Both the position numbers and the translations under genes were made by a program. From contig CP113000.1 in NCBI GenBank assembly GCA_026625185.1, positions 525,622 to 557,621 on the forward strand: a DNA stretch of 32,000 nucleotides, in the 5' to 3' direction. Each line of letters opens with the position of its first letter. Within the stretch, counting starts at the first letter, position 1. Below the pieces are notes generated by a model. That model saw nothing but the letters and a program-made list of their open reading frames with translations, was not told the DNA's origin and did not search any database. Shown one piece after another: positions 7,734 to 29,690 of this stretch. The stretch is from Thermodesulfobacteriota bacterium. GTDB lineage: Bacteria; Desulfobacterota; WTBG01; JAGOGO01.

Positions 7734-7762
7734 ATTTTATCAGAAAAAAAATGAATCGTCAA
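7734..7762 (-). promoter_or_regulatory. sigma70-like promoter: TTGACG, 17-nt spacer, TAAAAT
   Basis: The minus strand reads TTGACG (7762-7757), attcattttttttctga (17 nt), TAAAAT (7739-7734), about 75 nt upstream of the ATG at 7657. The -35 hexamer lies in a flank that resembles the right terminus of the adjacent repeat. Confidence 0.45.
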
Positions 7763-7766
7763 ATTT

Positions 7767-8019
7767 GATGAATCCGTAAAAAGTCAAAAATCAGACGGCA
7801 CAGTAAAAAGCTTCAGATGCAAGGAGCGCAAATCCGACGGAATGAGGCGTACTTACCTGTACGCCGCAAATGATTCACCCCGTTAAATAAAGAATTTTCG
7901 GAGATCGGCAACTCAGAACCCGAAACCTTACGTTGGATTCTTTCTGCCTCCCGAAGCGAATATTTAACGGGGCAGGGATGCAGCGGAACGCCGCAGATGA
8001 ACTTTTTACGAAGCCGTCA
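7767..8019 (+). repeat. structured mosaic intergenic repeat, long copy 1 (253 bp)
   Basis: It starts GATGAATCCGTAAAAAGTCAAAAATCAGACGG and ends GATGAACTTTTTACGAAGCCGTCA. Its core modules are shared with 23322-23629 and 29371-29690: the GGCGTAC-ttacct-GTACGCC hairpin at 7846-7865, and the 11-bp stem CCCCGTTAAAT (7878-7888) pairing with ATTTAACGGGG (7962-7972). Its right end is 4 nt from the mutM stop codon. Confidence 0.85.
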
Positions 8020-8023
8020 AATT

Positions 8024-8866
8024 TCACTTTTGGCAGTGAGTACAGAAAGAAGCGCTTCGTCCCCCAACGCGCATACTTTTTATCGTTGTCCCGCAAGAGA
8101 AACAAGGTTTCCCTCGTCGCTGATAGACTTTAAGCTTTTTCTGAAATTTCCCCACCTTACCCAATCCATCCCGATAGCGTTTATCAGCTGCGGTAGTGCC
8201 CCGATTGTCAATAGCGTCTTTTAAGATTTTCCTGATCGAGCGGTGAAGACGTTTTATGTCATCCTCATCTAAAGTATTGGCAAGACGAGTAGGATGAATT
8301 TTCGCGTTAAAAAGGATTTCGTCGCTATAAATGTTCCCTATTCCCGCGATGCTTTTTTGATCCAGTAAAAGTGTTTTTATGACCCGCCGTGACTTTTGAA
8401 GGATGCGGGTAAGGCACGTTATGGAAAAGTCCTTTTCCAAAGGTTCCGGGCCCAAGCGGTCTAAAGTTAAGGGAGAAGATTGGAGAGAAGGAAGTTTAAG
8501 GAATATCTCACCAAATTTGCGAGGATCAATAAAACGAAGTTCTGTGCCGTTATTAAAATGAAAAACCGCTCGAGTATAGGGTTCGTAAGGGGTCCCCGTT
8601 TTTTTTAACCGCAACTGGCCGGACATCCCCAGGTGCATTACCAAACTTTTGGAAGGGATGAGGTAAAAAACCAAGTACTTAGCGCGTCGTCTAAGGAATT
8701 GAATCTTTGTTCCTTTGAGTTCCTTAATAAAATCCGGTGTGGAATGAAACCTGCGGAGAATTCTTATGTTTGAGTCAAGGGGGAAACTTACATTGGTTAT
8801 TATCTTACCAATTACCTTTGGAGCAAGATCATTTTTTATGGTTTCTATTTCGGGAAGCTCAGGCAT
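8024..8866 (-). CDS. mutM: formamidopyrimidine-DNA glycosylase (Fpg/MutM)
   Basis: 280 aa. It has the N-terminal MPELPEIE catalytic motif, an H2TH region, and a C-terminal zinc finger (CFSCG...FCTHCQK). Confidence 0.93.
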   Translation of the reverse strand: MPELPEIETIKNDLAPKVIGKIITNVSFPLDSNIRILRRFHSTPDFIKELKGTKIQFLRRRAKYLVFYLIPSKSLVMHLGMSGQLRLKKTGTPYEPYTRAVFHFNNGTELRFIDPRKFGEIFLKLPSLQSSPLTLDRLGPEPLEKDFSITCLTRILQKSRRVIKTLLLDQKSIAGIGNIYSDEILFNAKIHPTRLANTLDEDDIKRLHRSIRKILKDAIDNRGTTAADKRYRDGLGKVGKFQKKLKVYQRRGKPCFSCGTTIKSMRVGGRSASFCTHCQK

Positions 8867-23195: not shown

Positions 23196-23321
23196 GAAAA
23201 TGCTCCTTAATTTATAACCGCCATCACTAGCAAAACATCGCATGCTTTCGAAAAGCACATCCCTTTTAATAATATACTCATTTTATTCGAAAATAAAAAA
23301 TTTGCCTGGTTTGCAAAAAAT

Positions 23322-23629
23322 GATGAAGCCGTAAAAAGTCAAAATCAGACGGGACAGTAAAAAACTGCAGAAGCAAGGCGCGCAAATCCGACGGAATGAG
23401 GCGTACTTACCTGTACGCCGCAATGATTCACCCCGTTAAATAAAAATTGGAGATCGGCAACTAAGAACCCGGACCCTTACCTTGGCTTTTCTTCCTCCGG
23501 AAGCAAACATTTAACGGGGCAGGGGATGCAGCGCCTGTCCCCGTGCAACGCACAGGGGGCAACGCCGCAGATGGCGCGCTTCAGTTCTTTATCCCCCGCC
23601 GCAAGGCGGGACTTTTTACGAAGCCGTCA
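23322..23629 (+). repeat. structured mosaic intergenic repeat, long copy 2 (308 bp)
   Basis: Same termini as the other copies (GATGAAGCCGTAAAAAGTC ... GACTTTTTACGAAGCCGTCA). Its ~150-nt core differs from copy 3 at only 3 positions by my manual alignment. It carries two extra hairpin cassettes: CCCCGTGC-aac-GCACaGGGG (23539-23558) and CCCGCC-GCAA-GGCGGG (23595-23610, a GNRA tetraloop). Confidence 0.85.
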
Positions 23630-23869
23630 AAAATAACCGCCGCATTACCACAACCGGCTGGCCAGGTTCTCAAATCCTTGATGATCATTTTTTTACTTAA
23701 TCATAAAAATTCATCCTCTTGTTTTTTGGTTGAATCTGGTATAACTTTTATCCTTAAGTGAAAAAAGTGCCTCGCGGATAAGATGGTAAACAAAGCGGAT
23801 TACTCGCAATGCTATTTCTCACCTTCACAAAAAGAGGGTGTAATAATTTTAAAGAGGAGTCGGTATCGT

Positions 23870-28291: not shown

Positions 28292-28405
28292 GATGAATCC
28301 GTAAAAGTCGAAGGTGTCACCCTGAGCTTAGTTCACCCCGAGCTTGTCGAGGGGAAGGGTTAACATAAAAAAACCCACGAATTTTGATTTTTTACGAAGC
28401 CGCCA
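28292..28405 (+). repeat. short (114-bp) variant of the mosaic repeat: same termini, unrelated core
   Basis: It starts GATGAATCCGTAAAAGTC and ends GATTTTTTACGAAGCCGCCA. Its interior is a nested hairpin (ACCCTGAGCTTAGTTCACCCCGAGCTTGTCGAGGGGAAGGGT) that does not occur in the long copies. Its right end is 8 nt from the MscS-family gene stop codon. Confidence 0.7.
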
Positions 28406-29370: not shown

Positions 29371-29690
29371 GATGAATCCGTAAAAAGTCAAAAATCAGAC
29401 GGCACAGCGGTAGGGACACGTTGCAACGTGTCCCTACATCAGATGCCTGTCTTCGATCGTTGCTCGGAGGCAAGGCGCGCCTGTCTTTGAGCTTCGCTCG
29501 GAGGCAAATCCGACGGAATGAGGCGTACTTTACCTGTACGCCGCAATGATTCACCCCGTTAAATAAAAATTGGAGATCGGCAACTAAGAACCCGAACCCT
29601 TACCTTGGCTTTTCTGCCTCCGGAAGCAAACATTTAACGGGGCAGGGGATGCAGCGGAACGCAGCAGATGAACTTTTTACGAAGCCGTCA
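29371..29690 (+). repeat. structured mosaic intergenic repeat, long copy 3 (320 bp)
   Basis: It has the same termini and core as the other long copies. It also contains a nested 28-bp perfect palindrome, GTAGGGACACGTTGCAACGTGTCCCTAC (29410-29437). A 29-nt unit is tandemly duplicated with a 34-nt period (29445-29473 and 29479-29507). Its last 3 nt (TCA) are the malQ stop codon on the other strand. Confidence 0.85.

Follow-up and report, generated by a model that had tools for sequence, protein, structure and literature searches.

What are the four similar repeats that lie between the genes of this chromosome segment, how did they come to be there, and what maintains their shared fold? The window (the whole 32-kb stretch of DNA that was analysed) is a metagenomic, Desulfobacterota-like chromosome segment carrying glycosyltransferase genes, fpg, msrAB, aqpZ and malQ. 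An earlier note had pointed to four loci of the same orientation with common ends, which it read as a MITE- or BIME-like mobile or structural element of a family that it did not recognise. We confirmed the four copies, all of them intergenic and on the + strand (Table 1). The 32-kb window contains four exact matches to the right-end 14-mer TTTTTACGAAGCCG, and five matches against 0.58 expected if two mismatches are allowed; the left-end 19-mer is present three times in the window (0.02 expected), copy 3 being one A short. As the note had said, the copies share no conserved open reading frame, and they have no coding capacity. Taken as a whole, the evidence set out below is probably best explained by the repeats being copies of a non-autonomous DNA transposon, that is, a MITE.

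Table 1. Positions of the four repeat copies, their flanks and their parts in the window.
Feature	Position	Strand	Remarks
Left target-site duplication AAATTT, copy 1	7761..7766	+	Same as 8019-8024; single in the empty sites L133-L138
Copy 1, long form, 252 nt (canonical element plus inserted module)	7767..8018	+	Matched end to end by covariance model R1, 105.8 bits, E 4e-23; absent from six orthologous contigs
Copy 1, outer left terminal inverted repeat L1, GATGAATCCGTAAAAAGTC	7767..7785	+	Family consensus GAYGGNYTCGTAAAAAGTC
Copy 1, inner left repeat L2, GACGGCACAGTAAAAAG	7794..7810	+	5' arm of basal helix, pairs with the right end (RNAalifold structure, pair counts)
Copy 1, tip hairpin GGCGTAC-TTACCT-GTACGCC	7846..7865	+	Helix 10; both-side changes in 4 of 7 pairs
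Copy 1, inserted module, 11-bp closing stem CCCCGTTAAAT/ATTTAACGGGG	7878..7972	+	113-nt insertion relative to model R1; splits the canonical hairpin in its 3' arm
Copy 1, right terminal inverted repeat AACTTTTTACGAAGCCGTC	8000..8018	+	Overlapped by the exact 19-mer ACTTTTTACGAAGCCGYCA, present in at least 120 genome loci
Right target-site duplication AAATTT, copy 1	8019..8024	+	Last T overlaps the fpg stop codon (8024-8026, minus strand)
Left target-site duplication AAAAAT, copy 2	23316..23321	+	
Copy 2, long form, 307 nt	23322..23628	+	Partial match to model R1, 45 bits
Copy 2, parts	L1 23322-23340; L2 23348-23364; tip hairpin 23400-23419; module 23431-23519; right repeat 23610-23628	+	
Copy 2, private GC-rich hairpins	~23534-23609	+	
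Copy 2, terminator-like hairpin CCCGCCGCAAGGCGGG, then ACTTTTTAC	23595..23619	+	Arises where a private insertion meets the T-run of the right repeat; copy 2 only
Right target-site duplication AAAAAT, copy 2	23629..23634	+	
Copy 3, short form, 113 nt	28292..28404	+	Family ends (L1 one A short; right end GATTTTTTACGAAGCCGCC) round an unrelated GC-rich core; no match to model R1
Copy 3, flanking hexamers AATCTT/AGCCTT	either side of 28292..28404	+	4 of 6 positions match
Copy 4, long form, 319 nt	29371..29689	+	Matches model R1 more weakly than copy 1
Copy 4, parts	L1 29371-29389; L2 from 29398; tip hairpin 29522-29542; module 29554-29642; right repeat 29671-29689	+	
Copy 4, extra G·U-rich hairpins	~29408-29505	+	
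Copy 4, flanks GATCTT and AGGCCC	either side of 29371..29689	+	No duplication

We found the termini of the window copies to be common to copies in other genomes. In species-representative genomes, the exact 19-nt right end ACTTTTTACGAAGCCGYCA, which contains the first base of the target duplication, is present at no fewer than 120 loci with unrelated flanks, distributed over at least 80 assemblies that are all metagenome-assembled genomes (MAGs) and mostly from Desulfobacterota. Family copies were collected by this exact right-end pattern, with the upstream sequence read from each match (loci labelled L001 onwards). Most of the loci among the matches listed are labelled Desulfobacterales, Desulfobacteraceae, Desulfosudaceae, Syntrophales, Syntrophobacterales or Thermodesulfobacteriota, and one Desulfosudaceae MAG holds at least eight of the loci. 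A few of the matches listed carry the labels Nitrospirae, Thermodesulfovibrionales, Acidobacteriota or Pseudomonadota, which may be binning errors. The right end was also present on two contigs of a viral collection.

The canonical element measures ~152 nt (151-153 nt) and is laid out as GATGGnCTCGTAAAAAGTC – 7-10 nt – GACGGCAAAGTAAAAAG... GCAAGGCGCGCAAATCCTGAGGAATGAGGCGTAC-loop-GTACGCCGCAATGACGAAGGATGCAGCGCAACGCAG...GGACTTTTTACGAAGCCGTC. Its terminal inverted repeats are 19 bp long, the left GAYGGNYTCGTAAAAAGTC being the reverse complement of the right GACGGCTTCGTAAAAAGTC, with perfect or near-perfect pairs at L047 and L098, and the repeat recurs once more (L2) ~27 nt inside the left end; both the ends and L2 are visible in an alignment of 26 canonical copies. 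In light of this layout, several details of the earlier description could be settled. The inverted core of 10-11 bp that it reported is present, whereas the subterminal position that it gave to this core does not hold for the wider family, in which the repeat is terminal; it looks subterminal in the window because the left ends there (GATGAAKCC) have diverged. Its left boundaries stood, and its right boundaries proved one base too long, since the element stops at GTC and the target duplication begins with the A that follows. The direct repeat GAAKCCGT, the 7-bp hairpin GGCGTAC/GTACGCC and the 11-bp stem CCCCGTTAAAT/ATTTAACGGGG were all located at the places claimed, and a further hairpin, CTTCC-tcc-GGAAG, takes that exact form in copy 2 only.

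The interior of the element is modular. The three long window copies are the canonical element with a ~95-nt stem-bounded module in its 3' arm and with copy-specific GC-rich hairpins. In L017 and L091 this position is likewise taken by a module that CCCCGTTAAAT...ATTTAACGGGG closes and whose interior differs, and L011 has a related module there; across these loci and the window, the fourth position of the stem is C-G, G·U or U-A. The covariation proposed for this stem is backed by single-sequence examples only. The short copy 3 is the same end pair round a different core, and belongs to an 'ends only' sort in which the family ends enclose unrelated GC-rich cores, e.g. GTCATTCCCGCGCAGGCGGGAATCCAG... 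in L015, L030, L031, L034, L048, L078 and L121.

The family is mobile, inserts between genes and duplicates its target upon insertion. A target-site duplication had been proposed as a possibility for the window copies, and it is exact at copies 1 and 2, degraded at copy 3 and absent at copy 4. Flanking direct repeats recur across many copies: counting from the element boundaries GA...GTC, we found exact repeats at 49 of the 88 paired copies among the matches listed (~1.2 expected), 6 nt long at 38 of them and 7 nt long at 11, compared to 1.0 and 0.2 for re-paired flanks. The exact duplication is missing in ~40% of the copies among these matches, many being off by a single base, and such one-base differences fit decay. 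The duplicated hexamers and heptamers begin with A in 47 and end with T in 46 of the 49 cases, and in four copies a non-T base adjoining the left end is duplicated on the right as well; as non-T last bases are still duplicated, these terminal bases are part of the target rather than of the element. The same four copies disfavour a scheme of TG...CA termini with a duplication of 4-5 bp. Upon reconstructing 39 targets, we obtained the weakly palindromic consensus YY|AWNNWT|RR, of which the central 6 bp, occasionally 7, are duplicated.

Copy 1 could be compared with its empty site. Six metagenome contigs from related populations carry a single AAATTT and no element downstream of fpg, where they read ...GAGTCGTCAAATTTCACTTTTGGCAGTG..., and the same place in the window reads AAATTT, the 252-nt element and AAATTT; a search of the six contigs with our covariance model R1 (see below) likewise found no element. 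The empty sites also account for a 16-nt near-duplication that the earlier note had described around copy 1. CGTC is already present in them, and the near-duplication thus combines the 6-bp duplication with a preference for targets in which ...GTC precedes the hexamer. As the right junction of the element (...GTC followed by AWNNWT) recreates this preferred target, copies often lie 6-7 nt downstream of another right end, and the tandem order of right end, 6-7 nt and left end was found at L115, L011, L090, L013 and L121.

These tandem junctions, which show GAAGCCRTC-N6-GAYGGCTTC, could also be read as the work of a tyrosine recombinase: a core site with inverted arms round a 6-7 bp overlap would then be made up of the right end, a 6-bp spacer and the left end, and the apparent duplication would be that overlap, present at both junctions. 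Overlap regions of such enzymes are typically 6 or 7 nt long, and the weakly palindromic target resembles the tandem junction. However, an element that carries its overlap would have one unchanging hexamer or, as in Tn916-type elements, a hexamer at one junction that differs from that at the other, whereas the hexamer here varies between copies yet is the same to the left and right of any one copy, and the empty site contains exactly one hexamer, which is characteristic of fill-in following staggered cuts. We regard insertion by a tyrosine recombinase as very unlikely, and integron attC or Xer/dif-like recombination was rejected on the same grounds. The duplicated and variable flanking hexamers also ruled out a PATE of the IS200/IS605 type or a remnant of a TnpB omega-RNA, as which the left junctions (TTGAT|GAA) could be read: the apparent TTGAT consists of the last T(T) of the variable duplicated hexamer and of the element's own GAT, and is hence not a fixed target or TAM. 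An IS110/IS1111 element with a bridge or seek RNA, which the seemingly subterminal repeats of the window could evoke, was ruled out by the terminal position of the repeats in the family, the 6-bp duplication, the varied targets and the absence of an open reading frame.

We found the fold of the element to be conserved by compensatory changes. The long window copies fold 4 to 5.4 standard deviations better than shuffled sequences on either strand. Applying RNAalifold to the 26 canonical copies yielded one long imperfect hairpin that extends from L2 to the right end, with 38 pairs, 13 of which show double changes, and from this structure we built the covariance model R1. The model gave 76 strong sense-strand matches in the family loci; within the window, copies 2 and 4 match it more weakly than copy 1 because of their insertions. 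Pairing in the 75 distinct copies amounted to 94.7% of cells, as opposed to 27-42% after sliding the partners by 1-3 columns, where both figures stem from related copies that were collected by their right end and aligned by fitting to the model. Changes on both sides were seen in 22 of the 38 pairs (197 cells) across the 75 copies, compared to 12.7 pairs and 59.5 cells in shuffles that do not preserve relatedness, and 0 of 500 shuffles reached the observed values; the slid-partner control does preserve relatedness. These counts support a long hairpin, from L2 to the right end, that is kept by compensatory changes, and the covariation that had been proposed for the stems is in this way borne out for the main hairpin.

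The pair counts also distinguish the two strands. In the 75 copies, G·U pairs outnumbered A·C pairs by 150 to 31, 13 pair positions contained at least three G·U and only one contained at least three A·C, and at one position G·U was present in 37 of the 75 copies. A matching mutational bias was absent from the unpaired columns, which on this strand showed no excess of C>T (5.9%, versus 12.0% for G>A). Because the hairpin tolerates G·U and not A·C, the + strand of the element is the one under selection, and pairing is hence maintained on this strand, as RNA or as single-stranded DNA.

These data bear on the possibility that the hairpin has no function and belongs to an ordinary MITE, with the covariation arising from templated correction of quasi-palindromes (template switching) and from shared descent. 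The element is essentially one long inverted repeat, a known substrate of templated palindrome correction; the copies are related, which the shuffle control ignores; and the element showed neither a consistent promoter or terminator nor a sense bias relative to the flanking genes. Templated correction would, however, yield Watson-Crick pairs on both strands, and yet G·U is frequent at as many as 13 positions, A·C is rare with no mutational bias to match, and the slid-partner control, which retains relatedness, left only 27-42% of the cells paired. On balance, we consider a functionless hairpin unlikely.

The gene context offered a further view of a possible RNA role. In the family loci, the element lies between co-directional genes in antisense orientation in 27 cases and in sense orientation in 13, between divergent genes in 11 and between convergent genes in 4. 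This antisense excess is not what would be expected of an RNA that functions by read-through of the + strand. Neither a promoter nor a terminator was consistently found in the element, a terminator-like hairpin being present in copy 2 only. Copy 1 lies directly beside a -35-like box and the stop codon of fpg, and part of the malQ stop codon comes from copy 4; since copies are located at gene ends and promoters, they may alter expression. A reading in which the repeats are genes for a structured non-coding RNA, spread by segmental duplication and not mobile, would account for the strong fold, the covariation with its G·U bias, and the variable-length stems at fixed positions that many structured RNAs have. 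It is contradicted by the empty sites, with precise presence or absence at orthologous positions and a 6-bp duplication, and also runs against the unrelated flanks across the at least 120 loci, the inconsistent orientation relative to genes, and the lack of an own promoter or terminator and of an Rfam family, which makes it extremely unlikely.

The non-autonomous DNA transposon that we favour would be moved by a transposase supplied in trans. This enzyme would bind the repeats, at two sites on the left and one on the right, and may cut with a stagger of 6 bp in the manner of DDE-type enzymes, and the hairpin might matter either as single-stranded DNA in transposition or as RNA in read-through transcripts. 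A palindromic target with a duplication fixed at 6 bp is the product of DDE-type staggered cutting, and several DDE families are known to have two binding sites at one of their ends. We infer the DDE-type step, since it rests on the fixed-length duplication and the loci examined yielded no partner transposase. Within ~0.8 Mb of family loci, no transposase gene was flanked by these repeats, and an all-against-all clustering of 872 open reading frames from the loci returned housekeeping families and a common AAA/DUF4143 ATPase only, with no recurrent neighbouring proteins beyond housekeeping families. Nor did a transposase appear among open reading frames inside unpaired right or left ends of the loci, between end pairs 0.7-4 kb apart, or between distant end pairs with matching duplications. 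Viral contigs scanned with a degenerate repeat gave only further MITEs and chance matches, and the neighbouring 10 kb to the left and to the right of the window likewise contained no transposase with these ends.

As a candidate for the autonomous partner, the ISDol1 group (ISNCY) offers a lead only. This group has direct repeats of 6-7 bp in the ISfinder family table, and its type element is from Desulfococcus oleovorans, whose family is taken as Desulfosudaceae. It would hence resemble the present family in repeat length and in its host, a Desulfosudaceae MAG being the one that carries at least eight of our loci.

A single-copy enzyme would offer a different account of the transposase search. 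REPINs are non-autonomous, hairpin-forming repeats of ~100 nt whose hairpin is selected, which form clusters by insertion into or beside existing copies, and whose mobilising gene is not multicopy (PMC3116915). By analogy, the hairpin repeat could be moved as single-stranded DNA by a host-resident, single-copy transposase (RAYT/HUH-like, or another domesticated enzyme) instead of a multicopy insertion sequence, with the strand-specific hairpin as the enzyme's substrate. Such a REPIN-like arrangement would agree with the strand-specific selection on the hairpin, with the finding of no multicopy transposase near any copy examined, and with the conservation of the ends across at least 80 MAG assemblies. 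Insertion beside existing copies is shared with REPINs, and the REPIN 5' tail is complementary to the 3' end, as L1 is here to the right end (PMC3116915). Against this analogy stands the 6-bp duplication, established by the empty sites and by the statistics; moreover, the individual repeats are not REP-like palindromes, and the loci examined showed no RAYT-like gene between such repeats. Target duplication is not known from IS200/IS605-type (HUH) insertion. A REPIN-like origin is accordingly quite unlikely in our estimate, and of the two readings in the earlier note, the MITE was retained while the BIME/REP one was unsupported, since REP-type elements are not expected to yield target duplications. 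It also seems improbable that the element is a mobile unit with strand-specific structure (either a non-coding RNA gene that moves, or a DNA transposon with a hairpin and 6-bp duplications) that is kept across Desulfobacterota by a possibly single-copy transposase reading the doubled left repeat and the hairpin. If true, this would amount to a REPIN-like partnership of host and element on a different enzyme chemistry.

Terminal inverted repeats, a target-site duplication, a filled/empty polymorphism and a small, multicopy, non-coding body (113-319 nt in the window), which are among the marks of a MITE, were found here. Among known elements of this kind, the Correia elements duplicate TA. ERIC and Correia repeats are listed as MITEs and resemble the present family as imperfect palindromes of ~100-150 bp that are intergenic and vary in size by internal insertions and deletions (PMC3184786), yet their hosts and sequences differ, and what distinguishes our family is its doubled left-end repeat and its duplication of 6 bp at AWNNWT. 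The closest comparison in its working is bcr1 of the Bacillus cereus group, which is ~155 bp long, is flanked by short direct repeats and preserves its structure through compensatory changes (PMC3184786). It is non-coding, multicopy and reported to be transcribed, its distribution is not conserved between strains, and no cognate transposase is cited for it (PMC3184786). It differs in belonging to another phylum and in having direct repeats of 5 bp, versus 6 bp at AWNNWT here, and we liken the two by description only. [quoted passage not shown] Given the duplication of 6 bp instead of 9 bp, the present repeats are not of the same family as Chunjie. REPINs and their RAYTs differ from the present case by its target duplication, by end repeats that are not REP palindromes and by the lack of any RAYT association seen.

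The family also went unrecognised in the collections that we searched, in keeping with what the earlier note had said of it. For the window and three loci with canonical copies, Rfam 15 returned no family at the gathering threshold (best sub-threshold E ~0.6), no tRNA was found in the window, and copy 4 had no blastn match in plasmids and phages. Literature searches with the end sequences yielded nothing relevant, and those on ISDol1, Chunjie and sulfate-reducer repeats yielded no description of this family. The MITE family is widespread and appears to be undescribed, and it differs from Chunjie and bcr1 as these are described. As regards its conservation, a 19-mer that is exactly conserved together with a conserved interior across many species goes beyond most MITE families, the right-end conservation being partly a product of selection because the copies were gathered with the exact right-end pattern. 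Conservation of this kind hints at a constraint outside the plain model of a parasite of an insertion sequence.

Overall, the element is a real, apparently unnamed member of an ordinary class, the MITEs, with a putative mobilising enzyme and a possible RNA role. Boundaries, a target rule and a covariance model are now given for a repeat that occurs in at least 80 MAG assemblies, mostly of uncultured Desulfobacterota, and whose copies are otherwise liable to be annotated as spurious open reading frames or candidate RNAs. The strand-specific conservation of the hairpin and the finding of no partner together pose a modest question on the persistence of orphan elements. The repeat furthermore disrupts metagenome assemblies: as expected of a multicopy repeat, public assemblies break within copies 1 and 4, with a 614.8-kb contig ending in copy 1 and another contig starting in copy 4.

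The same terminal repeats serve as carriers of several unrelated hairpin cores. In seven stretches from other assemblies (L-handles; see table), the family ends enclose another GC-rich core, one that many of these elements have in common, GTCATTCCCGCGCAGGCGGGAATCCAG ... CTGGATTCCGGC..GCCGGAATGAC. L051, L058, L083 and L113 have received further hairpin modules, of the GCTCAGGGC...GAGCCTGTCGAA type, and copy 3 of the window holds a similar module. A sister family, found in L016, is bounded by left-type repeats (GATGAACTCGTAAAAAGTC ... GACTTTTTACGAGTTCATC) around a core unlike that of the main family; one of its copies is flanked by AATCTT and AAGATT, which are inverted, not direct, repeats. At five further loci, solo right-end repeats were found with no other part of the element recognisable, one of them lying immediately 3' of a stop codon. 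An AAA ATPase whose C-terminus is DUF4143-like was found repeatedly, at 5 of ~120 loci (L040, L105, L112, L118 and L126), and immediately adjoins a terminal repeat in two cases; this recurring neighbour probably just represents a common multicopy gene family.

Within the window, every long copy except copy 4 has a target duplication, and the stop codon of a malQ-like gene overlaps the end of copy 4; the 3' end of this gene may have been reshaped by the insertion of copy 4 or by a subsequent deletion. Only on the + strand can the two inserts inside copy 4 pair with each other, and G·U accounts for many of these pairs. At copy 1, the element has inserted directly at the promoter-like site of a 126-aa ORF. 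The -35 box of this site corresponds, in reverse complement, to CGTCAA in the copy 1 target, and the target duplication keeps this box intact. Copies 1 and 4 are also the points at which public assemblies of the same organism break (contigs L139 and L142), and the repeat therefore restricts contig size in these metagenomes.

Features in the window and in stretches from other assemblies (L-handles)
Feature	Location	Strand	Details
malQ-like gene stop codon	window 29688-29690	minus	final two bases of copy 4 plus first flanking base
Two near-identical inserts in copy 4	window 29408-29505		~25 nt each; CCTGTCTTCGATCGTTGCTCGGAGG and CCTGTCTTTGAGCTTCGCTCGGAGG
Promoter-like site, 126-aa ORF	window 7734-7762	minus	TTGACG, 17 nt, TAAAAT; TG upstream
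Sister-family copies	L016:1570-1771 and L016:3233-3434		left-type repeat at either end, different core
Solo right-end repeats	L062, L065, L075, L117, L122 (right-end matches)		20-25 nt
Assembly break inside copy 1	L139:17205-17365		end of 614.8-kb JGI contig
Assembly break inside copy 4	L142:11493-11642		start of NCBI contig JARDUI010000208.1
Family ends, different GC-rich core	L015, L030, L031, L034, L048, L078, L121 (interiors)
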